DNA of 64,000 nucleotides from Bdellovibrionota bacterium. Lineage in GTDB: Bacteria; Bdellovibrionota_G; JALEGL01; DATDPG01. Position 1 is the stretch's first letter. Each line of letters begins with the position of its first letter. Positions 16,302-64,000 of the stretch are shown piece after piece. The DNA lies in contig DATDPG010000019.1 in NCBI GenBank assembly GCA_035292885.1, positions 59,570 through 123,569 on the forward strand, read 5' to 3'. The notes under the pieces are model-generated. The model was not told the origin of the DNA. It saw only the letters and a list, made by a program, of their open reading frames with translations, and did no database searches. The translations under genes and the position numbers were made by a program.

Positions 16302-16406
16302 GAACCAAACGGCATCCGGTCAAAATAGTTTCCGTACGAGAACTGATACAAATCATGGTTCACAAGGAGGCGTTCTGTTCTCCTAATTCTAGTAACCGGA
16401 ATTCAT

Positions 16407-16910: not shown

Positions 16911-16939
16911 GGCGGAGCGGACAGGAGACCTGAAACGAC

Positions 16940-42308: not shown

Positions 42309-42596
42309 TGAATTACAGTAACGAGATTTCGCCCCAAGAAAATGGAGGAGATTTTAGAGTGTTCCCTTGCTTCAATCCAGTTTTGAGGTCGACGAAGCGG
42401 AGTTTCGCAGGATCGGAAAGGTCGACCATGATCCAAATCAGCTTGAAATTACGACGAACGGTTGATTTTTAACCACCGGTCTCGGAGCGCGGGGTTATTT
42501 CTCCAGACCTCAAAGATCATCCTTCGGTATCCTTCGAGCCAAAGAATAATCTGTTCAGGCGTGAGTTTGGGTGTTCGTCCCCAGTCATGAGTTGTT

Positions 42597-43094: not shown

Positions 43095-43236
43095 CGTTCG
43101 ATACTGTAACGAATCTGGGTAGAAATTCCCATTCGTCGCCTTGGGAGGATGGCGAAGGCCTCATCGGCGTGTAAAACCGATCGGACGGCGTCCCGCGGAA
43201 TCAAAGACTTTCCAAGATTCTCTCTCTAAGTATGGG

Positions 43237-45168: not shown

Positions 45169-45213
45169 ATCTCAGCTTGGCGGGCGCCGAAACATGAACT
45201 CATTCTGAGCCTG

Positions 45214-45588
45214 TTATTTCGCCTTTGACTGCAGGTCTCGCGTGTATTCCGTCAACGCCGTAATGTCGGCGTCCGACAGTCCTTCCAACTTCTTCATCTT
45301 CCCTTTGCCCTCTTTCATCGACTTCTTAATGTCGTCGTCGGTGATTTTCTTGGCTTCGGGGGAAAGGATGCTGAGCCCTTCCGGCTTTTCGAGCTTCAGG
45401 GTTTTAGCTACCGGCATCCAGGAGCCGTCCGCCTTCTTTCCGCCGCCGTCTTCCGCGTGGCATTTCTTGCAATGCTTGTCGTACAGCGCCTTTTTCGCGG
45501 CGTCATCCGCCGCGAATGCGGACGCGGCAAACATCAAAGCGGGCACAACCAGGATTCCGATCAGTCCAATCAACGTCTTCTTCAACAT
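45214..45588 (-). CDS. periplasmic monoheme class I cytochrome c (paralog of 12625..12975)
   Basis: RBS ggagg 7 nt upstream of the ATG at 45588. Signal peptide. CKKCH. Near-identical core (LYDKHCKKCHAEDG.GKK...KTLKLEKPE) with the first copy. Confidence 0.8.
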   Translation of the reverse strand: MLKKTLIGLIGILVVPALMFAASAFAADDAAKKALYDKHCKKCHAEDGGGKKADGSWMPVAKTLKLEKPEGLSILSPEAKKITDDDIKKSMKEGKGKMKKLEGLSDADITALTEYTRDLQSKAK

Positions 45589-45644
45589 AGGCTTCCTCCA
45601 GTGTTTCTTTTTAGATGATGCCAAATTTACGAACATGATTCGGA

Positions 45645-45686
45645 TCAATGAAATGAAAAGAGGGCCGGCCCGTATGGGCCGGCCCC
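45645..45686 (-). terminator. intrinsic terminator after the outer-membrane cytochrome gene
   Basis: gggccggccc-gtat-gggccggccc GC hairpin followed on the minus strand by a T-rich run. Confidence 0.5.
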
Positions 45687-45719
45687 GTCAATCGCTCTGG
45701 ACGGTTCAAACTCTCGCGC

Positions 45720-48700
45720 TTAACGCAACGTCGCGTTCGGAACCGCCACGCCGGTGATTACCTTATACGTCCCTTGGAGGACGCCGACCTCGTATCCGGC
45801 GTTATGGACGCCCATGCTGCCGTCTCGAACCACCAGATTGTGGTTCCAGATCGCCCGGCGGATCTTGTCGGATCGGGCCCACTTGAAGGCCCCGCCGGCG
45901 GGATAGACGCTAACGCCGGGGTTGCAGTCCGCGGCGTTCGTGCAGGCCGTAGTAAGGTCGTTGTCGCACTTGCCGGCAATGTACGCCCCGCACGTGCTGA
46001 GGCACTTGTCGTGCGTCGGCGTCGGATCCAAAGGATCGACCGTACCACACGAGATGGTCGTATCTTCTTTGCACCGGTTCTTGCTCGAACCCGAGGTATT
46101 GCACGGACGCGCATCCGCGCCTGCACCGTTGAAGTTCGAGTAACCCAGAGCGTCCGGAACGATGCAGTCGTTGTCCGTGGAACACTCGATCTCATCCGTA
46201 CTCCCGGCGGTGGACCTCGGTTTTGCGATGGTGCACTTGTTGGTCGCAGTGACACAGGGGCCGAAGTACATCGTCCCCGTCGTCGCAATTTTGCAGTCCT
46301 CGTCCTTGGAGCAACTATAGGCCGAACGTTGATCACACTTTCCGGCTGTGATCGTCCCGCACGGTCCGTAGTTCGTCGCTGATACGGTCGTCACATTCAC
46401 CTTCTTCAGGTTGCATCCGGCATCCGAAGTGCAGAATTGAGCGTCGGCCACAATCGTAGTACTTGCTGCCGAGCAAGTCTTGACCGCGTCGCAACTCGTG
46501 TCACCAGCCGCCGTGCAACTGATGTAGGGCGCCAGCGTACACTTCTTGTTTGCGTTGCAGTCACCCGCGTCCAGTGTAGTGACACTGCACGTTCCCAGGT
46601 TCACGTCGTCGTACGCTTTGATGGCGTCCGACAAGAGGAGCGCAAGCCCCGTGACTTCGTCCTGGATCCCCTCGATCGTCCCATCGCCGTCGTAATCGCC
46701 GCGAGCCTCACGGTTAATCTCCGTGAGATCCGTGTGACATGGCGTGCACGCGCTGATGTTCGCGAGCTCACCCGCTTCACCGGCTACGGTCTCCTCTTCC
46801 TCGGCACCGACTAGATGGCCGACGCCGTGACCGCTCATAATGTTGAAAGAGTGACCGCCCAAGTGGCGGAACCCATCCTCCGTCGCATCCGGCCCCTCGG
46901 CCATGTGGCACGTGAGGCACTTCCGGTTCTCCGTCGGCAATGTCGGGTCACCCGAAACATCCGCCAGAATAAATCCCGGCTCGGAATGGAACGAATTCCC
47001 CGTTGTGAAGACATCGTCGATTCCGTTTTTGTCGAGGTCGAGAAGAGCCCCCTTTCCTTCGAGAACGGGAGCCTGCGGATTGTAGTGGACCTGTCGCGTG
47101 TAATAGTCCGCGTTTTGCTCCAACGTCTCGCAGAGCGTATCTGAAACGCCGTCGCGATTCGTGTCGCACGAAAACTCTCCGAAACTGTAGAGGCCGTCGT
47201 GGCACTTGTAACAAACGGCCGCCTTCCCGGCATCCACTGTCGATTCGTCGATGATCATCTCGAGCTCTCCGTGCATTCGAAGCTGGTCCTCGTTTGTCGC
47301 GTCGTGCGGGTCATGACACCCAGCGCACCCGATACCGACGAAAGCCTCCTGTTCCGTGATCGGCGTGAGGGCTTCCTCGCCCCCCTCCACATAATTGATG
47401 AAGCCCTTGGAGGTATGGCAGCGTGTACAGGCTGCGTTCGTGAGCCATGAAACCTGATAGCTGGCGGAGCCGTGCGAGACGCCGGTCATGTTGTGCGAGG
47501 AGTTGATCCATTCGGCCTCTTGCGTATGACACTGGCCGCAGATACCGGTCTGAGAAGCGGAGACACCGATCTTCGTGGCGTCGCCGTTGTGTCCCGAACC
47601 CGGGCCATGGCAATTCTCACACTGAACACCGCTTAGAGCGGCCACGGAAGGCGCATCCGCCAAGAAATCGGCGTATGTGCCCGGCTGGGTGGAAACGTCA
47701 AAGCCGGTCGAGGCCACGGCCTCGTCAAATCCGCCGTTTGCGGCGGACGTATTGTAACCGACCGTTTCAAAGCCCCACAGATAGGGCTCGGGTGCCAGCG
47801 ATGACATGGCCAGATACGAATTTTCGTAGAGCTTTGAGTGATTTGTTCCCTGCCACTCGCCGACTTTGTCCGGCATCGCCGAACCGTCATGGCATCCGGC
47901 GCACTCGGGCCTCGCCGCGTCGCCGGTGATACTTCCGATGCCTACATACGTCCCGGCATACATCCGGAACGAACCCACGATCGTGCAATGATCCACGCCG
48001 CCGTCCGAGGTGTATTTACAATTGGGCGCGACACGGCCGCACGCCCGTACACCATCCGCATCGGGTCCCACAGCCGATTCATCGACCGTCGCCGTGTAGG
48101 CCACCGTGTAATACCCCTCGACATCCGGCGTGAACTTGGGGAGCTGAAGCGCTGAGGCTACGGTTCCGGAATCGGCAAAAACGGCTGCAGATCCATCCGG
48201 GGGTGTCAGCGTCCAAGACCAGTCATCGTTGATGGGCTTGGCGCGCCTCGTGGTCGGCGTGCTCGTCGAAGGCAACGAACCGTTACACGCTGTCGAAGTG
48301 GATGTGTACTCCAATATGACCGAACTGTTCGGTCCCTGCAGGTAGAGGGGAACATTCAGCGGAACGGTCCAAAGACCGCTCGACCGCTGAATCTCGGCAC
48401 CGGCGTCCTGAACATAGACCACCTGTGTCGTGCTGTCGCTGTTCCCGGCACCGTCGTCCACCGTCAACCTGAAATAGAGTTTCGTATCTTCGATCGAAAC
48501 AGGGAGCGGTTGCCACTTGTACTCATCACTTTGTCCGCCGTGCGCGGCGTTCTCCTCAGCTTCCCTCAAACCGACGGTCAGAAAATCCTTAAGCGCGGGA
48601 GCGGTGAACGGAAGAGTTGAGGACGTGCTCCCGGCCGTCGCGGTCGCGAAGGGGCCGGAGACCTGCTGCCAGCTGTAGTTCACGACACTTCCGCGGCTGT

Positions 48701-49163
48701 TTTCGCCGGAGAGAATTCCACCCGCGTCTTCCAAATCGATGGCCAGTTCATCCGTTCCGAATCGTGTGCGTGTGGTGATGGTGGAACCGGAACCGTTCGT
48801 GATGACCGCAAGAATCGTCTTGGCCGTGACGCTGACCGTGTCGGTGCTTTCGGCATCGTGGAGAGAGAGTTTCAACACGTACGTGCCGGCCGCGTCCGCG
48901 ACAAAGCTGGTCGCGATTTCGGAACCGCCCGTCAGAGCGGCGGAAGAACCGTCGGGTTTCGATTCAAGCGTCCATATAATATTGCCGACGACCGTGCTTC
49001 CGGAACCGTCCAAATTCACGGTGTCGCCGATCAGGACCTTCTGGTCCTCGCCTGCGTTAGCGGCGGCGGTCCCTTCCGGATCGTCGTCGCATGCCGAAAC
49101 ACTGATCGCCACGGCGGCAGCCGCGAGAAGATTGATCATCCAAAGTCCCTTCGTGCTTTTCAT
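45720..49163 (-). CDS. 1147-aa cell-surface multiheme (8 CxxCH) lipoprotein cytochrome with PKD/Ig-like N-terminal domains and Cys-rich C-terminal region (OmcB-like position)
   Basis: RBS gagggagag. Signal with lipobox ISVSAC. Eight CxxCH motifs between roughly residues 420 and 830. C-terminal region with dozens of Cys. Last gene of the porin-cytochrome operon. Confidence 0.7.
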   Translation of the reverse strand: MKSTKGLWMINLLAAAAVAISVSACDDDPEGTAAANAGEDQKVLIGDTVNLDGSGSTVVGNIIWTLESKPDGSSAALTGGSEIATSFVADAAGTYVLKLSLHDAESTDTVSVTAKTILAVITNGSGSTITTRTRFGTDELAIDLEDAGGILSGENSRGSVVNYSWQQVSGPFATATAGSTSSTLPFTAPALKDFLTVGLREAEENAAHGGQSDEYKWQPLPVSIEDTKLYFRLTVDDGAGNSDSTTQVVYVQDAGAEIQRSSGLWTVPLNVPLYLQGPNSSVILEYTSTSTACNGSLPSTSTPTTRRAKPINDDWSWTLTPPDGSAAVFADSGTVASALQLPKFTPDVEGYYTVAYTATVDESAVGPDADGVRACGRVAPNCKYTSDGGVDHCTIVGSFRMYAGTYVGIGSITGDAARPECAGCHDGSAMPDKVGEWQGTNHSKLYENSYLAMSSLAPEPYLWGFETVGYNTSAANGGFDEAVASTGFDVSTQPGTYADFLADAPSVAALSGVQCENCHGPGSGHNGDATKIGVSASQTGICGQCHTQEAEWINSSHNMTGVSHGSASYQVSWLTNAACTRCHTSKGFINYVEGGEEALTPITEQEAFVGIGCAGCHDPHDATNEDQLRMHGELEMIIDESTVDAGKAAVCYKCHDGLYSFGEFSCDTNRDGVSDTLCETLEQNADYYTRQVHYNPQAPVLEGKGALLDLDKNGIDDVFTTGNSFHSEPGFILADVSGDPTLPTENRKCLTCHMAEGPDATEDGFRHLGGHSFNIMSGHGVGHLVGAEEEETVAGEAGELANISACTPCHTDLTEINREARGDYDGDGTIEGIQDEVTGLALLLSDAIKAYDDVNLGTCSVTTLDAGDCNANKKCTLAPYISCTAAGDTSCDAVKTCSAASTTIVADAQFCTSDAGCNLKKVNVTTVSATNYGPCGTITAGKCDQRSAYSCSKDEDCKIATTGTMYFGPCVTATNKCTIAKPRSTAGSTDEIECSTDNDCIVPDALGYSNFNGAGADARPCNTSGSSKNRCKEDTTISCGTVDPLDPTPTHDKCLSTCGAYIAGKCDNDLTTACTNAADCNPGVSVYPAGGAFKWARSDKIRRAIWNHNLVVRDGSMGVHNAGYEVGVLQGTYKVITGVAVPNATLR

Positions 49164-49189
49164 GTTTTCTCTCCCTCTCATGAAAGTTC

Positions 49190-49849
49190 TTACTGCGTAT
49201 GACATATGATGCAAGCCTGTCCATTGTCCGGATGCCGAAGCGGCGTATGGCAGCCCCGGCAATCCGCGTTAGGTAGATGGTTGACGTTGCTCGGTCGCCT
49301 CGGCGTGGCCATGTGAGCCGAGCTCGTTTGGTGGCACACCACGCACCTCTGTGCCCCATACGATTCCAGCGGGTAATGACAGTTCAGGCAGTGCCGATTT
49401 TGGGACGCCCCGAACCCGGCCATGTGATCGATCGGCTTCGTTTCCATATGGCACCGCTGGCAGAAGTCGGTCCGGTGGCACGTCATGCACTGCGATCGGT
49501 CGAAGCCCACCTGGAGCGCATGGCCGCGGAGGCGGAAGAATTGGTTGTGATTCGCCGGCGGCGTGATCTGGTGGCATTCCGAGCAGCTGGACTGCGTGTG
49601 GCAGAGGTTGCAGCTGTTCTTCGTGTCGAACCTAAACCGCTGCACCAGCGCGCCGTGCTCATGCTTGAACGTCAAATCGTGCCAGGCCGGTTTCGTGTCT
49701 TTGGTCATCCCGCCTTCGTGACATTCCGAACAGTCGCTGTCTCGCGCAACATCCGGGTGCTCCCACGTTGTGCCTTCGTCGCACCCTTTGTTGCCGAGAA
49801 AAAATGGGACCGCGAGCATTATTGTTAAAACAGACAACGATCGTCTGAT
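49190..49849 (-). CDS. nonaheme periplasmic c-type cytochrome (OmaB-like; paralog of the heptaheme 13308..13937)
   Basis: Nine CxxCH motifs. Shares the SCxxCH..SSCxxCH and FCxRCH patterns with the heptaheme gene. The 5' end is uncertain because the ORF extension runs into the 119-bp palindrome. Confidence 0.7.
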   Translation of the reverse strand: MRRSLSVLTIMLAVPFFLGNKGCDEGTTWEHPDVARDSDCSECHEGGMTKDTKPAWHDLTFKHEHGALVQRFRFDTKNSCNLCHTQSSCSECHQITPPANHNQFFRLRGHALQVGFDRSQCMTCHRTDFCQRCHMETKPIDHMAGFGASQNRHCLNCHYPLESYGAQRCVVCHQTSSAHMATPRRPSNVNHLPNADCRGCHTPLRHPDNGQACIICHTQ

Positions 49850-49851
49850 GG

Positions 49852-49970
49852 GGTGCCAAGAAAATACGTTCGGGCTCCGGTCCCGACGGTACCCCCCAAG
49901 TCCATGCTCGAGACTGCGCGTGGACTTGGGTGTCCCCGTCGGGCCACCCGAACGTATTTTCTTGGCACCC
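49852..49970. repeat. 119-bp near-perfect palindrome between porin and nonaheme cytochrome genes
   Basis: Arms gggtgccaagaaaatacgttcggg (49852-49875) and cccgaacgtattttcttggcaccc (49947-49970) are exact reverse complements. Nested inner arms cccgacgg/ccgtcggg and aagtcca/tggactt. Starts 1 nt after the porin stop. Confidence 0.7.
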
Positions 49971-49971
49971 T

Positions 49972-51312
49972 TCAAAAGTTCCAAGCGACCCTCACATCCA
50001 ACGTATGGAAATTGTCCAGGTCACTGGTTTCAAATTCGTACCCGAGCCGCCCCTCAAAGTCTTTGAGAAACTTCACGGTTCCCCGCGCATAGTACGTTTG
50101 GACGTTGTCCGATTCGTTCCCGGCTAAAAGGTTATATCGATAGAGGTAGAAAGCTGTTCCGGCCGTCAGCCGCAGCTTCCGCTTCAACAGGTCTTGGGCG
50201 ATGGAGAAAGATGTCCCGTACGTATCGTTCTGAAGTTCGTTGTCCTGTCCCAAATAGTAATCGCCGGTTAACGAAAGGCTCATGCCGTCGAGCGGCCATT
50301 CGATCGTTGACCCCGTCAAAAAGAACCGCTGAAAACCGTGATTGAACGCACTGGCGACCTGCTCTTCAATCAAAATACGGAATGCATACCCCGCATCCAG
50401 GGCAAAATGCTCGCCGATCCCCTTCATCCCGGTGAAGGCCATTTCGTAATACGGTTTGTATTCCCCGGCGAACGAATACGGATCCAGATCGATCACGCGG
50501 ACACCGTACGACTCGAGGAGACTGAAGAAGTGAAACTGGAGAGAAAGGTTCTGTTCGATGAATCGGTACCGGGTGTCGAGGGCCAAGTCCCGGACTTGAT
50601 CCAAGAACGATGTAAACCTCGAGGAAATCATGAGCCCCGGCTGGGCGTCCCACCAAACGCTCAGGCCGAAGAGATCATCTTCGATGTCACCGACGTTCGC
50701 CCGGAAGCCGGTGAAGTCATCCTTCAAATGAACGTAATCGAAACGGGCCCGAACCACCTTGACCGGATCGATCTCAAACGCTCCGCCGGCGACAAAATCG
50801 CCGCTGTCGGAACCGGTTTCCGTTTCGTAGAAATGGACCGGAACGCCGCCGTACGACATCAGCTTGAACCCTTTGGCTTCCCGCCACTGAAGGGAGAGGC
50901 CGTCGAAGTACAGCGACTCGAATTCCTGCCGGAACTGCCGTCCCGCGCGAAGCCGATCGAATACGCCGAGGTTGTTGGCGTCGAGGTAGGCGTGGTAGAT
51001 CCGCCCCGCGGCGCCGGTGTTGAAGGAGTCGTACACGCCATTGAACGTGGAATCCGAACTGTCGCCGTCCAGGTCGAAAATCCCGCCGGCCTGCAGGGAA
51101 ACCGCCACGCGGTCGTTCAAAGGCTCGCCCATGTTGAGCGAAAGAAGCGTTTCAAGATCCTGATCGCTGGTATCGGCGGTGGCGCGCAGTTTGTAACGGG
51201 TGCTGATGGAACCGAAAATATTGGAGTCTTCCGCGATCGCCGCATCGCAATAGACATACGCCCCAAAAAGGAGAAGCGTACATCCCAACCGACGGCGGCG
51301 AGAGGCGAGCAT
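49972..51312 (-). CDS. outer-membrane beta-barrel protein, candidate porin of the second porin-cytochrome conduit
   Basis: Signal MLASRRRRLGCTLLLFGAYVYCDAAIA. 446 aa. Amphipathic beta pattern. C-terminal VRVAWNF. Confidence 0.55.
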   Translation of the reverse strand: MLASRRRRLGCTLLLFGAYVYCDAAIAEDSNIFGSISTRYKLRATADTSDQDLETLLSLNMGEPLNDRVAVSLQAGGIFDLDGDSSDSTFNGVYDSFNTGAAGRIYHAYLDANNLGVFDRLRAGRQFRQEFESLYFDGLSLQWREAKGFKLMSYGGVPVHFYETETGSDSGDFVAGGAFEIDPVKVVRARFDYVHLKDDFTGFRANVGDIEDDLFGLSVWWDAQPGLMISSRFTSFLDQVRDLALDTRYRFIEQNLSLQFHFFSLLESYGVRVIDLDPYSFAGEYKPYYEMAFTGMKGIGEHFALDAGYAFRILIEEQVASAFNHGFQRFFLTGSTIEWPLDGMSLSLTGDYYLGQDNELQNDTYGTSFSIAQDLLKRKLRLTAGTAFYLYRYNLLAGNESDNVQTYYARGTVKFLKDFEGRLGYEFETSDLDNFHTLDVRVAWNF

Positions 51313-54214: not shown

Positions 54215-54381
54215 AGCGTCCCGAGCCCGACATATCTTGATAGTCGGCCGCCGCTGCATCCCGGTTGGCTGCGTTGCTCCCCCTCGACGTACAGCTTTGC
54301 AAGTACGCCGTCGTCGTCGCGCCTTGCCAACCGGGCGCATCGGCGTCCTTTGTTATCAATCTATCTCGGGCTCGGGACGCT
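54215..54381. mobile_element. 167-bp MITE-like palindromic element, copy A
   Basis: Terminal inverted repeats agcgtcccgagcccga / tcgggctcgggacgct. Internally an imperfect long hairpin. About 94% identical to the reverse complement of the element at 63140..63306. Begins 3 nt after the gdhA stop. Confidence 0.6.
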
Positions 54382-54442
54382 AGCGTTCCATAAGGGAACA
54401 CGGCGTTCTTTGCGGCGCCGGGTGGAATGTTATCATGCCGAT

Positions 54443-56827
54443 ATGCCCACCCGGCGCCGTCGTTTATCTCCTTCGAAATCGGCTCGTAAACGGCCTCCTC
54501 AGACTGAATCGAGTCGAGTCATTCAGCGCTATCTGCGCCGGTATCCGGGGCTCCGCGCCCGAATCATTCAGAATTTTCTCGTCCGCCTTCATTCCCAAGG
54601 GATCGTTTCGGTGGACGAAGTCTACCGGATTGCACTCGGGAAATCGGCGCTTCGGCAGCAGATCAAACACCGAGTCGCCATGAACATCGATACGGCCGTT
54701 CAATGGACGCGGACGGAACGGAACGCCGTATGGAAAACCGTTTTGTCGTACGCCGAGCGGCACTTTTCTCCGGAAGAAATTCACGATCTGGTCGGCGTGA
54801 CGGTCAAACGGGAAGAAGCGCAGAATCTTCAAGACATCGCCGGTCTTCCGGGAATTTCCTTCGAAATTCTTAAACGCAGGGTCGCGGATTTCTGCAAGCT
54901 TCCGCGGACCATCATTTCCCTGCCGCCTTCCGATCTGGTGGCGACCCGCGTCGCCCTCATGCGGCAGTTTGTCAGCGATCACATTGATTTTCTTACGGTC
55001 GCACGAAACTACGTCCAGGTGCGGGACCTGGACGTCGTCGCCCAGCGAATCATCGGTCCGAGGGAAGGAATGGGGCGGATCGGCGGGAAAGCGGCCGGCC
55101 TGCTTCTGGCCGACAAGATTTTACGCCAGCATTACCAGAACGCGGGAAGAGAGCCTCTGATGCCGCTCAAGACACCCGACTCATATTATTTGCGGTCCGA
55201 TTTGAACGACGAGTTCGTCCGCCGGAACGGCCTCATGGAATACGCGAGCCAGAAATACAAATCGCAGGAGGCGATCGAAGCCGATTACCCCCTGCTCCGG
55301 GAGCTTTTTCACGCCGGTTCATTCCCTCCCGAAGTCGTCTCCCGCATTCGAAAATTGCTGGAGAAACTCGGACCCACGCCGTTGATCGTCCGTTCCTCCA
55401 GTTTGTTGGAAGACAGCCTCGGCGCCGCGTTTTCCGGGAAATACCGGAGCATCTTTCTGGCGAATCAGGGCTCCCTTTCCAATCGACTGATTCGCTTTTT
55501 GAGCGCCGTAAAGGAGGTTTACGCGGGCGTGCTCTCGGCCGATCCACTGGTCTACCGGCGGGAGCGGGATCTAATCGACTACGACGAATTCATGGCGATT
55601 CTGATTCAACCGGTCGTGGGAAGGACGTATCGGCACTATTATTTTCCACTTTTCGCCGGCGTGGCGTTTTCGCGAAACGATTACTACCGGTGGGACCGCC
55701 GAATTCGCCGCGAGGACGGCTTGGTCCGCCTCGTCGCGGGGCTCGGCACACGCGCCGTGGACCGTGTCAGCGCGGAGTATCCGAGAATGATCGCCCTCAC
55801 GGTCCCGTCGCTCCGTCCCCAAGGGGACGTGGACGAGATCTGTCGCCAGTCTCAGCGCCGCGTGGATGTCGTGAATCTTAGAACGAACAGATTTGAAACA
55901 CTCAATTTTACCGACGCGATCGAGGCGGAACCCCCGCCGAATTTCGATCTGGTGGCTTCCATTGTAGAAGAGGAAGCCTTGCGACCGATCGTCGGAAATT
56001 TCGTGGATACCTCCCGACAATCGATCTGCCTGACGTTTGACAAATTGATTGAATCGACGCCGTTCGCGCCTCACATGCGTGAGGTGTTAAGCGTCTTGGA
56101 AAAGGGCTACGGATGCCCGGTGGACATCGAGTTCGCCAGCGATGGAAAAGATTTTTATCTGCTTCAATGCCGGCCGTTGGCGCAGAAAATCGAAGCTAGC
56201 CGTGTGCGCGTTCCGACGGACGTCGAGCCGAAGCGGGTTCTGTTCAACGCCCAGCGTGACGTGATGAACGGCATCGTGCGAAATATTGAATACATTGTTT
56301 ATGTTCCGGCCGAAGCGTACGACGACGTCTCTGATCTGACGACGAAACAGATGATCGGCCGCGTGGTGGGGCAGCTGAACCAGAAACTGCACGGCTCCAG
56401 ATTCATCTTGCTCGGTCCGGGACGCTGGGGATCCAACGACATCAATCTGGGCGTGCGCGTGAATTACGCCGACATTCGAAACAGCCGCGCTCTCATCGAG
56501 GTGGCTCATGAGAAGGACGGTTACGTTCCCGAAGTTTCGTTCGGCACACACTTCTTTCAAGATCTTGTGGAATCCGGAATCAGTTACCTGCCGCTCTATC
56601 CGGATGAGCCGGGCGGAATCTTCAATGCGGATTTTCTTCTGAATTCACCGAACCGCTTGCCGAAACTGTTGCCCAACCACAAGAGTTTTGCCCCGATAGT
56701 GCGGGCCATTCATGTCCCTGAAGTGGCGGAAGGCGAGTACGCCCATTTGCTGATGGACGGCGAGAATGAATTGGCGCTCTGTTATCTGGGCCCGATGCAG
56801 AGGGAAGAGGCGTCGACGCAGGCGTAG
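54443..56827 (+). CDS. PEP/pyruvate-binding (PPDK_N / PpsA N-terminal ATP-grasp-like) domain protein with N-terminal unknown domain
   Basis: GGKAAGLLLAD...LIVRSSSLLEDSLGAAFSGKYRSIFL matches the nucleotide-binding domain of PEP synthase/PPDK. No phospho-His swivel domain seen. Start set at the first ATG downstream of the MITE. Confidence 0.6.
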   Translation: MPTRRRRLSPSKSARKRPPQTESSRVIQRYLRRYPGLRARIIQNFLVRLHSQGIVSVDEVYRIALGKSALRQQIKHRVAMNIDTAVQWTRTERNAVWKTVLSYAERHFSPEEIHDLVGVTVKREEAQNLQDIAGLPGISFEILKRRVADFCKLPRTIISLPPSDLVATRVALMRQFVSDHIDFLTVARNYVQVRDLDVVAQRIIGPREGMGRIGGKAAGLLLADKILRQHYQNAGREPLMPLKTPDSYYLRSDLNDEFVRRNGLMEYASQKYKSQEAIEADYPLLRELFHAGSFPPEVVSRIRKLLEKLGPTPLIVRSSSLLEDSLGAAFSGKYRSIFLANQGSLSNRLIRFLSAVKEVYAGVLSADPLVYRRERDLIDYDEFMAILIQPVVGRTYRHYYFPLFAGVAFSRNDYYRWDRRIRREDGLVRLVAGLGTRAVDRVSAEYPRMIALTVPSLRPQGDVDEICRQSQRRVDVVNLRTNRFETLNFTDAIEAEPPPNFDLVASIVEEEALRPIVGNFVDTSRQSICLTFDKLIESTPFAPHMREVLSVLEKGYGCPVDIEFASDGKDFYLLQCRPLAQKIEASRVRVPTDVEPKRVLFNAQRDVMNGIVRNIEYIVYVPAEAYDDVSDLTTKQMIGRVVGQLNQKLHGSRFILLGPGRWGSNDINLGVRVNYADIRNSRALIEVAHEKDGYVPEVSFGTHFFQDLVESGISYLPLYPDEPGGIFNADFLLNSPNRLPKLLPNHKSFAPIVRAIHVPEVAEGEYAHLLMDGENELALCYLGPMQREEASTQA

Positions 56828-56861: not shown

Positions 56862-57143
56862 TCAGCTGATTTTTTCTTTCTCCGCCATCCGCCCGCTTAC
56901 AAACTTGTAAAGTACGCTTGAAATCAGCGTCTGATAAGGTATCCCTTCTTCCGCCGCCTTCACCCGAAGCCGCTCCAGCACCTGAGACGGAATTCTTATA
57001 TTCACCCTCTTGTCTTTGGCGAGCGTAGCGCGGGCGTATTTTTGGTATTTAGATTTTTCCCTTCTCAGTGAACGAACGGAACGCCATTCGTCTCGATCAT
57101 AAGAATCAAGAATCTCCTTCTCCTCTATATTTGGATGCTTCAT
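56862..57143 (-). CDS. brnA: BrnA-like RHH antitoxin
   Basis: ...RVNIRIPSQVLERLRVKAAEEGIPYQTLISSVLYKFV typical of BrnA/CopG antitoxins. Confidence 0.65.
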   Translation of the reverse strand: MKHPNIEEKEILDSYDRDEWRSVRSLRREKSKYQKYARATLAKDKRVNIRIPSQVLERLRVKAAEEGIPYQTLISSVLYKFVSGRMAEKEKIS

Positions 57144-57421
57144 TTGCGTCCCTTTCGTATATATATTCGGGTAGCCTTACGACTCGGAATGATGGTTTTA
57201 AACACGATTTCTGCGCCCTTTTCTTCAAAGGGGACCAAACATGCGTAACCGTTGATATCGAGGACGAAAATTCGCTGAAAAGGGTACTTCGCCTTATTGG
57301 GATGTTCCAAGATATCGAGAACACCTCCTCTTTCAATGACCAAAACCGCTTCCTCGAAGGAAATTTCTCGTTGGCTCTTAAGGCTCGCATTCTTCCCCGG
57401 ATCCCACGTAAAAACCTTCAC
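57140..57421 (-). CDS. brnT: BrnT-like (DUF497) ribonuclease toxin
   Basis: MKVFTWDPGKNASLKSQREISFEEA matches the BrnT N-terminal signature. GTG start. 4-nt overlap with brnA. Confidence 0.65.
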   Translation of the reverse strand: MKVFTWDPGKNASLKSQREISFEEAVLVIERGGVLDILEHPNKAKYPFQRIFVLDINGYACLVPFEEKGAEIVFKTIIPSRKATRIYIRKGRK

Positions 57422-57485
57422 TGTTGCTAATTGTAAGACAATGTGTGCCTAACGTCAACAACACTCTGGGCTAGTCGTCGCAGCC

Positions 57486-57590
57486 GGCGAGTACGCCCAT
57501 TTGCTGATGGACGGCGAGAATGAATTGGCGCTCTGATATCTGGGCCCTGTGCAGAGGGAAGAGACGTCGACGCAGGCCTAGCTGCAGGCT
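57486..57590. repeat. direct repeat copy 2 (degenerate duplicate of gene 3' end, downstream of brnTA)
   Basis: See copy 1. Reading frame broken by a stop (gcgctctgatat). Confidence 0.7.
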
Positions 57591-57651
57591 TGGACTGATT
57601 CAGATCATAGTAATTGTGCGTGCCGGCAATCATGATCCAGAATAGGAAATT

Positions 57652-58734
57652 ATGACCCAAATCCGAGCCTGGAAGTTCCAAAAAGCGGGGGAGCCGTTTT
57701 CGTTTGCGGAATCCGCCATGCCCAAACCGGCGCCGGGAGAAGTGTTGGTGCGAGTCGCGGGTTGCGGGGTTTGCCACACGGATCTCGGATACGTCTACGA
57801 CTCCGTTCGGACCGTCAAACCCCTTCCGCTGACGCTCGGTCACGAAATCAGCGGATTCGTGGAGGAGGTCGGCGCCGGGGCAAAAGAATGGATGGGAAAA
57901 GCGGTGATTATTCCGGCCATCCTTCCCTGCGGCGAATGTGATCTTTGCAAGAAGGGGAGACGATCGATCTGTCGGCGGCAGAAAATGCCTGGGAACCATA
58001 TCGACGGTGGTTTCGCAAGTCACATTGTTGTTCCCTCCCGTTTTCTGTGCGCCGTGCACGTTCGAAACGAAAATGAACATTTCGGCGATTCCGGCGTCAC
58101 GCTGAAGGAGCTCTCCGTCGTGGCGGATGCCGTTACCACGCCGTACATGGCGATTAAAAGGAGCGGCTTGGCAAAGGGCGATTTGGCGATCTTCGTCGGT
58201 GTCGGCGGAATTGGGGGTTTTGGTGTTCAGCTCGCCGCCGCTTTGGGCGCAACGGTTGTGGCCGTCGACATCTCGGACAAACGTCTTCAATTCATGAAGG
58301 AACATGGCGCCGAGGCCATTTTCAATTCGAAAGAGATCAACGGAAAGGAACTCCGAAGGGCGATCGGCGCGTTCGCGGCCGAACGAAAACTTCCGTCGTA
58401 CGAATGGAAGATTTTTGAAACCTCGGGGAGCGCCGCCGGGCAAGAACTAGCGTTTGGGCTCTTGACCTTCGGCGCTCATTTGGCCGTCGTCGGTTATACG
58501 ATGGAACAACCCGCCCTGCGCTTAAGCAATTTGATGGCGTATGACGCCCAAGCTTCGGGAAATTGGGGATGTGATCCGGTCTATTACCGGGAGGTGCTGG
58601 ATCTGGTAAAGAGCGGAAAGATCAAGCTTGCGCCGTTCGTGGAGCTGCACCCATTGAACCAGATCAACGAGATTTTCAACTGGGCGCACCACAAGAAACT
58701 GGAACGGCGCGCCGTTCTGATACCGGAAAAATAA
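57652..58734 (+). CDS. had: Zn-dependent MDR alcohol dehydrogenase, candidate 6-hydroxycyclohex-1-ene-1-carbonyl-CoA dehydrogenase
   Basis: GCGVCHTDLGY zinc-ADH motif. GVGGIGGFGVQ Rossmann fold. 360 aa. Gene order matches the Thauera had-oah-dch-bcrCBAD cluster. Confidence 0.55.
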   Translation: MTQIRAWKFQKAGEPFSFAESAMPKPAPGEVLVRVAGCGVCHTDLGYVYDSVRTVKPLPLTLGHEISGFVEEVGAGAKEWMGKAVIIPAILPCGECDLCKKGRRSICRRQKMPGNHIDGGFASHIVVPSRFLCAVHVRNENEHFGDSGVTLKELSVVADAVTTPYMAIKRSGLAKGDLAIFVGVGGIGGFGVQLAAALGATVVAVDISDKRLQFMKEHGAEAIFNSKEINGKELRRAIGAFAAERKLPSYEWKIFETSGSAAGQELAFGLLTFGAHLAVVGYTMEQPALRLSNLMAYDAQASGNWGCDPVYYREVLDLVKSGKIKLAPFVELHPLNQINEIFNWAHHKKLERRAVLIPEK

Positions 58735-58744
58735 AGGAGGACCG

Positions 58745-59845
58745 ATGTCGCCGTTTAAAGATCATGATTTGGTTCCGAATCCGAAGTTCACGCAGATCCT
58801 TTACGAATTAAAGCCGTGTCGGAACCCGAAAGGGTCGTCCGTTGCCGACCTTTTCAACGCGTGGATCACGCTGAACAATCCGGAGCAGTTCAATTCGTAC
58901 ACGACGCAGATGGTGAAAGAGACCATTTTGGCGTTTCGGACCGCGTCGAATCAGCGCAATGTGGTCGCGGTCGTCTTGACGGGCGCGGGCGAAAAAGCCT
59001 TCTGTACGGGGGGGAACACGAAGGAATACGCGGAGTACTACGCGGGCCAGCCGGACGAATATCGCCAATACATGAGGCTGTTCAACGACATGGTGACGAC
59101 GATTCTCCAGTGCGACAAGCCGGTGATCTGCCGGGTCAACGGCATGCGGATCGCCGGAGGCCAGGAAGTCGGCATGGCGTGTGACTTCTCGATCGCGAGC
59201 GACCGCGCAGTTTTCGGACAGGCCGGACCGAAGCACGGCTCCGTTCCGGACGGCGGCTCGACGGATTTCTTGCCTCTTTTCGTCGGCGTGGAGCGGGCGA
59301 TGGAAAGTTGCACGCTCTGCGAGACCTGGAGCGCCTATCAGGCGTATCGGCTCGGATTGATCACCGACGTCGTTCCGGTGCTGAAACGGAATGGAACGTT
59401 TATTTCGAACCCGGCGGTCATTACGGGCCGCTGGATCGATGAGGCCGGAAAGATCGTCTACGGCCAATTCAAGACGGGAGAGGACCGATCGAGCGCCGAA
59501 AAGATCGTTCGCGAATGCAAGGTGGATCTGTCGGCGCTCGATCGTGCGGTCGAAAGTATGTGCACGTCCCTTCTAATGACGATGCCGGGGTGCCTCTCCA
59601 AGACGCTCAGCTCCGTTCGAAAGCATAAGCTGGAACATTGGGACCGGAACCGAGAGACCAACCGCGACTGGCTCGGCCTGAACATGATGACCGAAGCGAA
59701 GGTCGGGTTCCGGGCGTTCAACGAAGGAACGAAGGAAAACCGCGAGGCCGATTTTATCGAGCTGCGCCGGAGACTTGCCCGCGGCGAGCGATGGAGCGAC
59801 ACGTTGGTCGAGGCGGTCCTCCCGTCGAAGAAGGAGAAGATTTAG
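58745..59845 (+). CDS. oah: crotonase-fold enzyme, candidate 6-oxocyclohex-1-ene-1-carbonyl-CoA hydrolase
   Basis: 366-aa enoyl-CoA hydratase/MenB-like (VLTGAGEKAFCTGGN, GGQEVGMACD), the size expected for Oah. Confidence 0.45.
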   Translation: MSPFKDHDLVPNPKFTQILYELKPCRNPKGSSVADLFNAWITLNNPEQFNSYTTQMVKETILAFRTASNQRNVVAVVLTGAGEKAFCTGGNTKEYAEYYAGQPDEYRQYMRLFNDMVTTILQCDKPVICRVNGMRIAGGQEVGMACDFSIASDRAVFGQAGPKHGSVPDGGSTDFLPLFVGVERAMESCTLCETWSAYQAYRLGLITDVVPVLKRNGTFISNPAVITGRWIDEAGKIVYGQFKTGEDRSSAEKIVRECKVDLSALDRAVESMCTSLLMTMPGCLSKTLSSVRKHKLEHWDRNRETNRDWLGLNMMTEAKVGFRAFNEGTKENREADFIELRRRLARGERWSDTLVEAVLPSKKEKI

Positions 59846-60616
59846 ATGGTCCCCTTCAAGAAGATCAAAGTCGACAAACTCTACGACGGCCAGGTTTGGT
59901 GGATTACGTTGAATGTTCCCAAGGGTAACGTTCTGGACCGGGAGATGATGTTGGAGATCGAAGACTCCGCGAGATCGGCCCGCATTCCGTCGGTGAAGGC
60001 GCTTGTTTTCGAGGGGGCGGGGGATCATTTCTCGTTCGGCGCCAGCGTGGCCGAACACACCAAAGAAGCGGCGCCGAGCATGCTGGCGGCGTTCCATCAA
60101 CTCTTCCGAACGTTGATCGATTCATCGAAACCTCTGGTTGCCGTCGTACGGGGTCAATGTCTCGGAGGAGGAATGGAATTGGCGACGTTTTGCCACTGGG
60201 TGTTCGCTTCCGAAAACGCCATGTTCGGCCAGCCCGAGATTCAGCTCGGCGTTTTTCCGCCGGTCGCATCGATCGTGCTTCCAGCCAAGGTCGGCCAGGC
60301 GGCCGCGGACGATCTCATCCTGACGGGTCGGTCGATTCCGGCGCGCGAAGCCAAGGAAATCGGCCTCATCACTTCCGTTTCCGGCGATCCAAAGGCGGAA
60401 GCGACGAACCTGCTCGACAAACAGATTCTCCCCAAGAGCGGTGCGGCGCTGGAATTCACCGTAAAAGCGAGCCGGTATGAATTTCATGAAGCCTTCCGCC
60501 GTGGAATCGAGCGGCTGGAGAAGACGTATGTTCGTGAATTGATGGAAACCGCCGACGCCAACGAGGGAATCGCATCCTTCCTGGAGAAACGGAAACCGGC
60601 CTGGAAAAATCGATGA
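59846..60616 (+). CDS. dch: enoyl-CoA hydratase, candidate cyclohexa-1,5-diene-1-carbonyl-CoA hydratase
   Basis: 256-aa crotonase (FEGAGDHFSFGA, GGGMELA). Confidence 0.5.
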   Translation: MVPFKKIKVDKLYDGQVWWITLNVPKGNVLDREMMLEIEDSARSARIPSVKALVFEGAGDHFSFGASVAEHTKEAAPSMLAAFHQLFRTLIDSSKPLVAVVRGQCLGGGMELATFCHWVFASENAMFGQPEIQLGVFPPVASIVLPAKVGQAAADDLILTGRSIPAREAKEIGLITSVSGDPKAEATNLLDKQILPKSGAALEFTVKASRYEFHEAFRRGIERLEKTYVRELMETADANEGIASFLEKRKPAWKNR

Positions 60617-60623
60617 GGAATTC

Positions 60624-60695
60624 GGGGGACACACGACTGGACCCAAACTCCAATTGCTTCTCAAGAAGCCAATTCGGGTCCATACATGTGTCCCC
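60624..60695. repeat. 72-bp imperfect nested palindrome between dch and bcrC
   Basis: gggggacacac...gtgtcccc outer stem with an inner ccaattg...caattcgg stem. Confidence 0.4.
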
Positions 60696-60706
60696 TTAAT
60701 TAAGAG

Positions 60707-61870
60707 ATGACCGTCGAGCAGATCATCGGGCGCTGTCAGGTGCTCTACGACGATCTGGAATTCAAATACGTCCGAGAATGGAAATCGAAAAAAGCCGGGC
60801 GCAAAGCGGTGGGTTACATGCCGATCTATATCCCCCGGGAGCTGGTGCGGGCGGCCGGTATTCTTCCCGTCGGCCTGATGGGCGGGGGGGACCAGCTGGA
60901 AATCATCCGCGGAGATTCGTACTTTCAGTCATACATCTGCCACATTCCGCGAAGCACGATCGAACTGGGTCTCCTCAAGAGATTCGATGACCTCGATGGT
61001 TTGATCTTTCCGAGCACGTGCGACGTCATCCGAAACCTGTCGGGGATGTGGAAGCTTCTGTTTCCCGACCGGTACGTGAAATATTTTGATGTTCCGCAGA
61101 ATTTCGACCGAAATACGGCGGGAACGTATTACCGCCACGAGCTTCAGACGCTGCAAACGGATTTCGAACGGTTGTCCGGACAAGAGATTTCGGCGGAAGG
61201 ACTTCGAAAGGCGATCCGGCTCTATAACGAGAACCGGCGCTTGATTCGGGAGCTGTACGATCTTCGCTGCGAGCGGCCCTGGCTCGTTCCAACGACCGAG
61301 AGCTACCTGCTCCTTCGAGCGGGAAATCTCCTGGACGTCGAAGAGCACAATCGAATGCTGGCGGACTACCTCCGAGCCGTCATTCGCGTCGACCGCCGTC
61401 CTCTGGACAACAGCCGGGTCGTGATCCGGGGCGTTTTCTGCGAGCAGCCGCCGCTCAACCTGATCAAGACCTTGGAACGTTCGGGCTGTTACATCGTGGA
61501 AGACGATTTCGTCCTGGTCTCCCGCTGGATTCGAGGAGACATCCCCACCGAGGGGGACCCGCTCGAGAATCTGGTTCGCGCCTTTTTGGAGGACAGCGTG
61601 GAAACCGCCGTTCGGTACGACAGCGCGGACGAAAAAGGAACCCGATTGATCGAAATCGTCCGAAAGCGAAAAGCGGACGGCGTGATTTTTTGTGCGCCCA
61701 GTTTCTGCGATCCGGCACTTCTGGACCAGCCGATGTTGACGGCGGCTCTGGAAAAAGAGGAGATTCCTTATACGCACTTCAAGTTCGCCGAGAACACCGG
61801 GCAGTTTCAGGTCATCCGGGAGCAGGCCGGAACCTTTTCGGACTCCGTGAAACTTTGGGGGACCCTATGA
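60707..61870 (+). CDS. bcrC: benzoyl-CoA reductase / 2-hydroxyacyl-CoA dehydratase family subunit (BcrC/BadD-like)
   Basis: 387-aa HGD-D family. Positioned before the BcrB-like and activase-type genes. Confidence 0.6.
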   Translation: MTVEQIIGRCQVLYDDLEFKYVREWKSKKAGRKAVGYMPIYIPRELVRAAGILPVGLMGGGDQLEIIRGDSYFQSYICHIPRSTIELGLLKRFDDLDGLIFPSTCDVIRNLSGMWKLLFPDRYVKYFDVPQNFDRNTAGTYYRHELQTLQTDFERLSGQEISAEGLRKAIRLYNENRRLIRELYDLRCERPWLVPTTESYLLLRAGNLLDVEEHNRMLADYLRAVIRVDRRPLDNSRVVIRGVFCEQPPLNLIKTLERSGCYIVEDDFVLVSRWIRGDIPTEGDPLENLVRAFLEDSVETAVRYDSADEKGTRLIEIVRKRKADGVIFCAPSFCDPALLDQPMLTAALEKEEIPYTHFKFAENTGQFQVIREQAGTFSDSVKLWGTL

Positions 61871-63141
61871 GCGGAAAAATTCAAAAAGAACAGAGCATGG
61901 TCGTTCAAAAAGAAATGATCGCCGACTATTACAGCCGTCTTTCCCGGGCGCACGACGAAGGGAAGAAGGTCGTCTACACGTTTGTCCCCGGAAATTTGAT
62001 TGAATTGATCGACGCGCTCGGATTTTTGCCCGGTCTACCCGAGATCAACGCTCTTCAATCGGGGATGCGCGGCAAGTCGGCGGGGTACATCGCCGAGGCG
62101 GAAAAGGCGGGACATTCGGAAGATGTCTGCACGTACGTCAAGTGCGACATCGGGATGAAAAAATCGGGAAACATCGGTCCGACCGGCGAGAAAATTCCCG
62201 AACCGGATCTGTTGCTCCTGTCGTACACCGGCTGCTTCACCTTCATGAAATGGTTCGAGCTTCTCCGGAAGGAATACAACTGCCCGGTGGCGATGCTCCA
62301 CGTTCCCTACCAAGCGGACGGCGTCATCACCGACAACATGCGCAACTACGTCGTCGACCAGTTAAAAAACAACATTATCCCGACCATGGAAAAGGTGGTC
62401 GGTCGAAAGCTCGATCTGGACGAATTGTCGGCCCGCATGGCTCGCTCGGCGAAGGCGGAAGACGATTTGGTAAGCGTGTTCCAGTCGGCCAAGAAACGGC
62501 CGTCGCCGATCGACGCGTATTTCGGGGGCGTCTATTATATCGGGCCGATCTTCACGGCGTTCCGGGGCAGCGAAGCGTGCCAGACCTATTACCGCGTTCT
62601 CCGCGGTGAAGTGGAAGAGCGGATCGAGGAGCACAAAGGGCCGGTGACGCCCGAAGGGGACATTTCGCAGGAAAAATACCGTCTCGTCGTAGAGGGGCCT
62701 CCCAATTGGACCAACTTCCGGGAGTTCTGGAAGATGTTTTACGATGAGGGGGCGGTCGTTGTCGCCTCGACCTATACGAAAGTCGGGGGCGTCTACGACC
62801 GAGGCTTCCGGCACGATCCGAATCGTCCGCTCGAATCGCTCGCCGAGTACTGTCTCGGCTGTTACACGAACTTGAATCTCCCGTCGCGGATTTCGATGCT
62901 GGAAAAATATGTGAAGGAGTACGACGCGGACGGCTTTCTCATCAATTCGGTCAAGAGCTGCAATTCCTTCTCGGCCGGACAGCTTTTGATTTTGAGGGAA
63001 CTCGAAGCCCGCACGGGAAAGGCGGGAGCGTTCATCGAGACGGACCTCGTCGACCCCCGGTACTTCTCGGCGTCGAACGTGAAGACTCGACTTGAGTCGT
63101 ACTTTCGAATGATCGACATGAAAAGGGCAAGGGCAGCCTAG
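61867..63141 (+). CDS. bcrB: benzoyl-CoA reductase / 2-hydroxyacyl-CoA dehydratase family subunit (BcrB/BadE-like)
   Basis: 424 aa. ATGA overlap with the preceding gene. Confidence 0.6.
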   Translation: MSGKIQKEQSMVVQKEMIADYYSRLSRAHDEGKKVVYTFVPGNLIELIDALGFLPGLPEINALQSGMRGKSAGYIAEAEKAGHSEDVCTYVKCDIGMKKSGNIGPTGEKIPEPDLLLLSYTGCFTFMKWFELLRKEYNCPVAMLHVPYQADGVITDNMRNYVVDQLKNNIIPTMEKVVGRKLDLDELSARMARSAKAEDDLVSVFQSAKKRPSPIDAYFGGVYYIGPIFTAFRGSEACQTYYRVLRGEVEERIEEHKGPVTPEGDISQEKYRLVVEGPPNWTNFREFWKMFYDEGAVVVASTYTKVGGVYDRGFRHDPNRPLESLAEYCLGCYTNLNLPSRISMLEKYVKEYDADGFLINSVKSCNSFSAGQLLILRELEARTGKAGAFIETDLVDPRYFSASNVKTRLESYFRMIDMKRARAA

Positions 63142-63306
63142 TGTCCCGAGCCCGAAATAGATTGATAACAAAGGTCGCCGATGCGCCCGGATGGCAAGGC
63201 GCGACGACGAAGGCGTACTTGCAAAGCTGTACGTCGAGGAGGAGCAACGCAGCCAGCCGGGATGCAGCGGAGGCCGTCTATCAAGATATGTCGGGCTCGG
63301 GGCACT
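63140..63306. mobile_element. 167-bp MITE-like palindromic element, copy B (inverted relative to copy A), inserted between bcrB and bcrA
   Basis: TIRs gtgtcccgagcccga / tcgggctcggggcac. Internal sequence about 94% identical to the reverse complement of 54215..54381. Confidence 0.6.
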
Positions 63307-63308
63307 AA

Positions 63309-64000
63309 GGTGGAGTGCTTTATCGGAATTGACTTGGGATCGACCACCACAAAAGCGGTCATCATCGATCGAAACCGGAATATTTTGGGCAGTGGAATTA
63401 CGAACAGCCGGAGTAATTATGACGTCGCCTGCAAGATCGCCCGCGAGGAGGCGTTCACAAACGCCCGCTTCTCTCTGATTCGCGGTAAGGCAAAGCAGCG
63501 GGGCTTGCTGAATTCGGAGGGAGAGAAGGCCCTGGTCCGACTCGGAAACGAATTTTTCGTCCAAGACTTTTTGATCCAGTTGTGGAACCTTCGCGATTTA
63601 GCCACGGAACGGCTTCGGAACGAGCGCTATGCAACTTCCCGATTGACACTGCAAAAAATTCTCAGAGAAATATTTGAAGATATTGAAGAAAAGGCGATGA
63701 AAGACGTCGGGGGAGGGGGGAGACGAAAATCGGACTTTTTCCGAGATCTGGCCGGAGCCTATTATCAAGAATCGGCGGAACGTTACGCCCGGGAGGGAAA
63801 AATCCCCTTCGAGCTGCTGATGAGCGTGTTCGACGGCGTGATTTTTCTTGTCGAGAATTCGATGGAGGAAAAAGGATTCGCTGAAATCATGAAAGGTCTC
63901 TTCGACCGGGTCGGCTTCGGCATCTTCCCGAAGGAACGGGAAACCGATTGGCGGGAGTTGATCGAGGCAACGGCCTCCACGCCTTTCAATGAAGCGGGAA
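63309..64000 (+). CDS. bcrA: BadF/BadG/BcrA/BcrD-type ATPase (benzoyl-CoA reductase alpha-like / activase), partial
   Basis: GTG start. VECFIGIDLGSTTTKAVIID acetate/sugar-kinase-fold ATPase signature of the BcrA/HgdC family. Runs off the window end. Confidence 0.6.

Follow-up and report, generated by a model that had tools for sequence, protein, structure and literature searches.

A probable Thauera-type benzoyl-CoA degradation cluster with a palindromic element between bcrB and bcrA in a genome labelled Bdellovibrionota

Among the ATP-dependent (class I) benzoyl-CoA reductases, the closest described systems to the locus considered here include those of Thauera aromatica K172, whose genes are arranged as had-oah-dch-bcrCBAD-fdx and whose locus includes a ferredoxin gene, and of Rhodopseudomonas palustris, which encodes in badDEFG a four-subunit enzyme of the same BCR type and with the same subunit order, the lower pathway of this organism running through BadK, BadH and BadI. 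The DNA analyzed here is a stretch of 64,000 nucleotides (hereafter, the window) from a metagenome-assembled genome (MAG) labelled Bdellovibrionota bacterium (GenBank assembly GCA_035292885.1, contig DATDPG010000019.1, positions 59,570 to 123,569). Its right end, positions 57652-64000, very probably corresponds to the 5′ two-thirds of a benzoyl-CoA degradation cluster of the Thauera type, had-oah-dch-bcrC-bcrB-bcrA, as judged from family models, conserved residues and synteny, and a palindromic element was found between the last two of these genes.

Structural work on related enzymes offers further points of comparison. The crystal structure of BzdNO, from the Aromatoleum reductase BzdNOPQ (PDB 8s02), revealed that three cysteines of the catalytic subunit, Cys95, Cys128 and Cys380, ligate the [4Fe-4S]-OH2 cluster of the active site, that Glu65 is the proton donor, and that Tyr97 binds the thioester (PMC11971306). 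The 2-hydroxyacyl-CoA dehydratases HadBC and HgdAB, together with their activators, have the fold family and ATP-driven electron injection in common with the reductases, and structures of dehydratase activators have been solved (PMC7317905); in a table of the same source, no cluster other than [4Fe-4S] is ascribed to the Thauera-type enzyme. Regarding distribution, class I genes accompanied by dch, had and oah were reported in MAGs of Dehalococcoidia, Anaerolineae, Deltaproteobacteria, Aminicenantes, TA06 and archaea, in a study that discussed ATP-dependent reductases in strict anaerobes as surprising and the iron reducer Ferroglobus placidus as a known exception (PMC6472368), and complete benzoyl-CoA pathways were described in Krumholzibacteriota MAGs (PMC10936416).

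Within 57652-64000, six co-oriented frames were found on the forward strand, with the Thauera-like order and the sizes that a first-pass annotation of this DNA had reported (360, 366, 256, 387 and 424 amino acids, aa, followed by the start of a BcrA-type ATPase). Their scores against the respective NCBIfam models are given with the coordinates.

57652-58734, + strand: had, 360 aa, Pfam ADH_N and ADH_zinc_N; TIGR03201, 498 bits (cut-off 339)
58745-59845, + strand: oah, ring-opening crotonase, 6-oxocyclohex-1-ene-1-carbonyl-CoA hydrolase, 366 aa; TIGR03200, 560 bits (cut-off 464)
59846-60616, + strand: dch, probable cyclohexa-1,5-diene-1-carbonyl-CoA hydratase (crotonase), 256 aa; TIGR03189, 237 bits (cut-off 292.5)
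60707-61870, + strand: bcrC, gamma subunit of class I benzoyl-CoA reductase, 387 aa; TIGR02263, 571 bits (cut-off 421)
61867-63141, + strand: bcrB, catalytic beta subunit of class I benzoyl-CoA reductase, 424 aa; TIGR02260, 720 bits (cut-off 487)
63310-64000, + strand: 5′ part of bcrA, alpha ATPase subunit of the electron-activating module, GTG start, 230 codons, open to the window end

Family assignment was based on the scores of NCBIfam equivalog hidden Markov models, on comparisons with solved structures in the PDB, and on the distributions of sequence identity. The E-values, which place all six matches far outside chance expectation, were 1e-149 for Had, 2e-168 for Oah, 3e-70 for Dch, 9e-172 for BcrC, 7e-217 for BcrB and 2e-46 for the BcrA fragment, and the Pfam content of the cluster comprised, besides the two alcohol dehydrogenase domains of Had, two ECH_1 domains, two HGD-D domains and one BcrAD_BadFG domain. 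The Thauera gene order is reproduced for the six genes seen, and the products BcrB, BcrC, Had and Oah all passed the models that represent the Thauera system. The rival models scored far lower, with 145 bits for HadB and 72 bits for BzdO in the case of BcrB, and 210 bits for HadC and 121 bits for BzdN in the case of BcrC. Had and Oah both exceeded their equivalog cut-offs, and their genes are adjacent to, and co-oriented with, those of the reductase. Because Oah reached only 133 bits with the BadI model (cut-off 468), while the Oah and Had models were passed, the lower pathway appears to be of the Thauera type and not of the R. palustris type. Identity of Had to the syntenic gene of related loci ranged from 41 to 57%.

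The bcrB ATG overlaps the bcrC stop codon as ATGA; a longer bcrB frame of 483 aa, starting from a TTG, is present in the mechanical list of open reading frames (ORFs). The BcrA fragment reached 159 bits with TIGR02259, in a match that covers the first 197 of the 432 model positions; the cut-off of 578 applies to the whole protein. It harbors the GIDLGSTTTK motif, and its N-terminus, MECFIGIDLGSTTTKAV, matches that of relatives, whereas the part of bcrA for the cysteines of the bridging [4Fe-4S] cluster would follow after position 64000. This fragment showed 31-48% identity to the syntenic bcrA in nearly all related loci, with one 58-residue match reaching 62%. The G+C content of the cluster (0.55-0.57) is that of the window.

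At the residue level, Glu59, Cys88, Tyr90, Cys123 and Cys365 of BcrB were invariant in 81 sequences and also present in MbdO and HadB, and they align with Glu65, Cys95, Tyr97, Cys128 and Cys380 of BzdO, so that the window protein shares these ligand cysteines and the glutamate with the Aromatoleum enzyme, a member of the same family for which the same [4Fe-4S]-OH2 chemistry is proposed (PMC11971306). A phenylalanine (Phe126) occupies the place of BzdO His131, as it does in MbdO. In BcrC, Cys78, Cys105 and Cys334 were invariant in 77 sequences and aligned to Cys73, Cys100 and Cys327 of BzdN; these cysteines match only three of the six ligand positions of the BzdN [8Fe-9S] double cubane, resembling HadC. 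This pattern is in line with how the Thauera-type enzyme was described earlier, with [4Fe-4S] clusters only (PMC7317905). Two further BcrC cysteines, Cys245 and Cys261, were also invariant in the 77 sequences, and are common to MbdN and absent in HadC. It was also observed that Cys332 of BcrB is invariant, and Cys329 nearly so, neither being found in MbdO or HadB.

Both catalytic subunits had as their highest-scoring PDB match the 3-methylbenzoyl-CoA reductase MbdONQP (PDB 9g87), which shares with the window proteins the three-cysteine motifs, the glutamate, and Cys245 and Cys261 of the gamma subunit. BcrB matched MbdO with 178 bits, HadB with 101 and BzdO with 69, while BcrC matched MbdN with 223 bits, HadC with 191 and BzdN with 123; the N-terminal 230 residues of BcrA had no PDB match. 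In a MAFFT alignment, BcrB was 30% identical to MbdO and 24% to HadB, against 68-74% to 80 genomic relatives.

Three other types of reductase were considered as candidates and rejected. A class II enzyme (BamB-I) finds no counterpart, as the tungsten-containing BamB, of the AOR family, is not among the Pfam-annotated genes of the window, whose sole molybdopterin enzyme is of the bis-PGD type (PF00384). A BZD-type reductase was rejected on the basis of TIGR03190 (121 bits, cut-off 454) and TIGR03191 (72 bits, cut-off 449), together with the three of six double-cubane cysteines and the phenylalanine replacing His131. The methylbenzoyl-CoA (MBR) type was set aside in view of the low identity of BcrB to MbdO, the benzoyl-CoA reductase equivalogs fitting far better.

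The relatives of the cluster were explored through a BcrB scan covering one genome per GTDB species, in which at least 590 relatives were confirmed, and the best 80 of these (loci L002-L081) were analyzed. All of the best 80 are MAGs, spanning Planctomycetota, Acidobacteriota, Krumholzibacteriia, Eisenbacteria, Myxococcota, Gemmatimonadota, Deferribacteres, Oligoflexia and others. When the window proteins were mapped onto these loci, the order had-oah-dch-bcrC-bcrB-bcrA was recovered in nearly all of them, and bcrD, mapped with the downstream genes of a relative of low G+C content, followed bcrA wherever the contig continued, reproducing the four-subunit layout of Thauera. The BcrD of one relative (L020) scored 336 bits with TIGR02261 (cut-off 313). 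These MAG clusters, from Krumholzibacteriota, Acidobacteriota, Planctomycetota, Myxococcota and others, are the nearest relatives of the locus and have the same order and spacing, whereas the window alone has the repeat element and its own upstream genes. In fact, none of the 80 related loci shares the upstream genes of the window, and the sole Oligoflexia MAG among them (L017, 71% identity) is no closer than MAGs of other phyla; for these reasons, the cluster looks like a widely exchanged module.

As side observations, a short-chain dehydrogenase gene often follows bcrD in the related loci, and in five of the 80 an acyl-CoA synthetase-like gene was found after bcrD, recognized by generic fatty-acid/acyl-CoA ligase models only and by none specific for benzoate. 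A scan of JGI metagenomes returned relatives at 39-41% identity only, none of them close to this genome, and a plasmid collection yielded only relatives at 24-25%, annotated as members of the dehydratase family. A literature search pairing Bdellovibrionota with benzoyl-CoA gave nothing on this topic among the matches listed.

The first-pass annotation had not mentioned that the gap between bcrB and bcrA, of 168 nt, is filled by a repeat element of 165 nt.

63141-63305: palindromic element resembling a miniature inverted-repeat transposable element (MITE), between bcrB and bcrA

The element has terminal inverted repeats GTGTCCCGAGCCCGA, its 34-nt arms are 82% complementary, and the hairpin predicted for its RNA has a folding energy of -99.7 kcal/mol (z = -10.5). 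A second copy, inverted and 94.5% identical, was found at 54216-54380, between gdh, just past its stop codon, and a gene with a PPDK_N domain; for the two copies taken together, the terminal inverted repeats are GYGTCCCGAGCCCGA. The element was absent from all 80 related loci, in which bcrB and bcrA are joined by an ATGA overlap or by a gap of a few nucleotides, and no Rfam match was found in 57000-64000. Three of the four element ends are flanked by TA, both at the bcr copy and one at the second copy. The present TAG stop codon of bcrB consists of the left TA and the G with which the element begins, and in silico removal of the element with one TA gave GCC-TAA-G-GTG, in which the bcrB stop is followed by one nucleotide and then by the bcrA start. 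The simplest reading of this configuration is that a TA-targeting MITE landed in the old bcrB stop codon, so that both frames would have been preserved while the tight translational coupling would have been broken. A target-site duplication is supported, and not proven, because TA is found at only one end of the second copy.

Concerning the second copy, the mechanical 825-aa ORF of the PPDK_N-domain gene (54350-56827) crosses the element, and the same gene was called from 54611 (738 aa), downstream of the element, on a contig of the European Nucleotide Archive (ENA). That contig, the longest match, has identical genes from gdh to bcrB and ends inside the copy between bcrB and bcrA. A scan of promoters and terminators gave counts at the level of shuffled sequence.

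The locus had already been deposited and annotated. Seven of the eight window proteins queried have exact NCBI matches, labelled MAG TPA: Bdellovibrionota bacterium and encoded on a contig of 133,267 bp, and the same DNA is present in ENA assembly ERZ27254861. The NCBI pipeline PGAP had given the name benzoyl-CoA reductase subunit B to HLG18498.1, which is identical to the BcrB of the window, and the corresponding name with subunit C to HLG18497.1, identical to its BcrC; HLG18495.1, identical to its Oah, had been named 6-oxocyclohex-1-ene-1-carbonyl-CoA hydratase. The assignment of the host to Bdellovibrionota is the label given by NCBI. The best non-self matches of the host malic enzyme, at most 70% identical, belong to mixed phyla and are uninformative for this label; the lineage appears to be poorly sampled, since these nearest matches are so distant and so mixed.

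A number of observations weigh against the Thauera-type reading and have to be set beside the evidence above. Dch fell short of the cut-off of its own family, TIGR03189, although this was its best model, 85 bits above the next one (151 bits), and bcrD was not seen, given that the window ends inside bcrA and no copy lies upstream. The very stable element hairpin covers the nucleotides that immediately precede the bcrA start codon. Within the 57 kb that lead up to the cluster, there is no AMP-forming or aromatic-acid CoA ligase and no 2-oxoglutarate (2-oxoacid):ferredoxin oxidoreductase, and no frame for a small 2[4Fe-4S] ferredoxin was found in the window, although the latter may be encoded elsewhere and linkage is not strictly defining. 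Such a ferredoxin frame was likewise missing within 10 kb in every one of the 80 related loci, a difference from the Thauera locus that the window shares with its relatives. A collection of 5.8 billion proteins held nothing identical or close to this BcrA, the best match of the 230-residue query being 47%. The host is labelled Bdellovibrionota in NCBI, which does not agree with the deltaproteobacterial metal-reducer framing of the first-pass annotation. That annotation had also held that an affinity of the subunits to dehydratases, combined with the lack of a ligase or ferredoxin nearby, would speak against benzoyl-CoA degradation: the missing ligase and ferredoxin were borne out for the 57 kb upstream, whereas the dehydratase affinity was contradicted by the model scores and identities. 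The Dch proteins of three tested syntenic relatives also lie below the TIGR03189 cut-off (192-249 bits), and the probable identity of Dch is supported by its place in the locus, the dch slot between oah and bcrC being kept in most related loci. The BcrA of L020 reached 548 bits against the cut-off of 578. The MAG clade thus appears to be a little removed from the curated seeds, and it differs in this respect from the Thauera locus.

The missing BcrA raises the question of whether the cluster might be in decay or silenced. In such a remnant, the coupling of bcrB to bcrA would have been lost through the element, and past the window end a disruption of bcrA or bcrD would leave no active reductase. 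The proteins HLG18491, 18495, 18497 and 18498 of the same contig are present in the collection, and a homology search of the same kind recovered the host malic enzyme at 100%; because BcrA is missing while its neighbors are present and identical proteins are recovered by such searches, bcrA may have been treated as a pseudogene by PGAP, although a plain gap in the collection could also account for the missing protein. The hairpin over the region 5′ of the bcrA start, at a junction that is an overlap or a few nucleotides in relatives, points in the same direction. Nevertheless, a protein that is missing from a collection provides indirect evidence only, the five complete genes are intact and keep every tested invariant residue, bcrA is open over its 230 visible codons and follows the family model colinearly, and neither frame was altered by the insertion, which restored a stop codon. 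A remnant is hence possible, although the balance of these observations makes it rather unlikely.

The substrate could also differ, with a class I reductase of the same family acting on another aryl-CoA, such as methyl-, hydroxy- or halobenzoyl-CoA or a partly reduced polycyclic acyl-CoA. The position of the MAG clade off the curated seeds (Dch and the L020 BcrA below their cut-offs), the extra conserved cysteines at BcrB 329/332 and BcrC 245/261, and the inclusion of methylbenzoyl-CoA reductases in the family are consistent with such an activity, which is nonetheless improbable considering that BcrB and BcrC exceed the benzoyl-CoA reductase cut-offs by 150-230 bits, that BcrB shares so little identity with the 3-methylbenzoyl-CoA reductase MbdO, and that the linked Had and Oah pass equivalogs of the unsubstituted pathway. 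Far less credible is the proposal, raised by the first-pass annotation as its alternative, that the two HGD-D proteins are a 2-hydroxyacyl-CoA dehydratase (Hgd/Had/Fld/Lcd) involved in amino-acid fermentation, with the ATPase as its activator. The Pfam domains HGD-D and BcrAD_BadFG are the same in both kinds of system, and HadC is the second-best solved structure for BcrC. However, NF052455 (HadB) and NF052456 (HadC) remained far below their cut-offs of 750 and 700 bits, respectively, while the Bcr models were passed; identity between BcrB and HadB is low; the ATPase fragment matches the BcrA model over its N-terminal part and no PDB entry, despite the solved activators; and the genomic partners are others, with dch, had and oah directly upstream and syntenic in relatives. 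On these grounds, the dehydratase alternative was rejected and is effectively refuted by the comparisons, in agreement with the Bcr-type assignment that the first-pass annotation had favored.

Returning to the Thauera-type cluster as the preferred interpretation, a route can be proposed by homology with the characterized enzymes. BcrA and BcrD, the latter presumed to be encoded just beyond the window end, would accept single electrons from reduced ferredoxin, the putative donor, with one ATP hydrolyzed per electron, and would pass the resulting very-low-potential electron on to BcrC and BcrB. The [4Fe-4S] cluster of BcrB, with three cysteine ligands plus a water ligand, would act together with the conserved glutamate to transfer a hydrogen atom, and then an electron and a proton, onto benzoyl-CoA, the probable substrate, yielding cyclohexa-1,5-diene-1-carbonyl-CoA. 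This product would be hydrated by Dch, the resulting 6-hydroxy compound would undergo NAD+-dependent oxidation by Had, and Oah would add water and open the ring to give 3-hydroxypimelyl-CoA, which would proceed to beta-oxidation. Expression of the genes is likewise presumed.

The cluster lies in the cytochrome-rich context that the first-pass annotation had described, with nine multi-haem frames of 4-11 CXXCH motifs each (66 in all) in the window, plus a Rieske/cytochrome b pair and a molybdopterin oxidoreductase. The 57 kb upstream of the cluster also hold the Fe-S subunit of the molybdopterin oxidoreductase, FeoAB and three Ser/Thr kinases. The main features of these surroundings are the following.

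13308-20131: second cytochrome set, with 7-, 9- and 5-haem proteins, one with weak matches to MtrC/MtrF domains
16940-19444: molybdopterin oxidoreductase, adjoining the 7-, 9- and 5-haem cytochromes
19445-20131: four-cluster Fe-S subunit of the molybdopterin oxidoreductase
39552-40916, - strand: 9-haem cytochrome (respiratory island 39552-51312)
40790-41941, - strand: cytochrome b (same island)
41859-42353, - strand: Rieske protein (same island)
43237-45168, - strand: 11-haem cytochrome fused to a b-type membrane domain (same island)
45720-49262, - strand: 1180-aa, 8-haem protein with PKD-like domains (same island)
49190-49984, - strand: further 9-haem protein (same island)
56862-57343, - strand: BrnA/CopG-type antitoxin of 93 aa and overlapping 67-aa partner (BrnT/BrnA-like pair), directly upstream of had

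The respiratory island also encodes, on the reverse strand, a 446-aa protein with no Pfam match. The BrnT/BrnA-like pair marks the left edge of the aromatic cluster, with no transcriptional regulator adjacent. Elsewhere in the window, a 750-aa transporter (28004-30256, - strand) matches MFS_1 and TLC, of the ATP/ADP translocase family, and has Ser/Thr kinase genes on both sides (26428-28017 and 30270-31850), an odd combination for a lineage labelled Bdellovibrionota.

From their haem motifs, the cytochromes may perform extracellular electron transfer, and a link between them and aromatic degradation can be suggested. The first-pass annotation had regarded a class I reductase beside such machinery as noteworthy, a view that is weakened because the cluster is widespread in MAGs of many phyla and cases outside the proteobacteria, including Ferroglobus placidus, have been published (PMC6472368, PMC10936416). 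The energetic rule on the ATP cost of ring reduction is discussed in PMC11971306, and the association fits this accepted rule, since a respiratory, cytochrome-rich host can afford two ATP per ring.

The cluster is, therefore, real but ordinary, of a kind already widely catalogued, with genes already named in GenBank. It differs from that of Thauera aromatica K172 in belonging to an uncultured lineage, and not to a denitrifying betaproteobacterium, and in the repeat element that splits bcrB from bcrA. Its practical value is small, consisting of a correct annotation and of a clean example of a small mobile element in the stop codon between coupled genes.

For the host, placed by its label in a phylum known for obligate predators, a tentative picture would be that of a deep-branching, free-living anaerobic respirer that oxidizes aromatic acids by the class I route and disposes of the electrons via the neighboring multi-haem cytochromes, possibly onto minerals, while the element may tune the ratio of catalytic to ATPase subunits; this picture is conceivable, but doubtful as a whole. 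More broadly, uncultured bacteria that carry an ATP-dependent anaerobic route for aromatic compounds are growing in number, and the locus contributes a further lineage. Their occurrence bears on the textbook rule that assigns class I reductases to facultative anaerobes and class II reductases to strict anaerobes, and a respiring, cytochrome-rich host would fit the energetic logic of that rule rather than break it.

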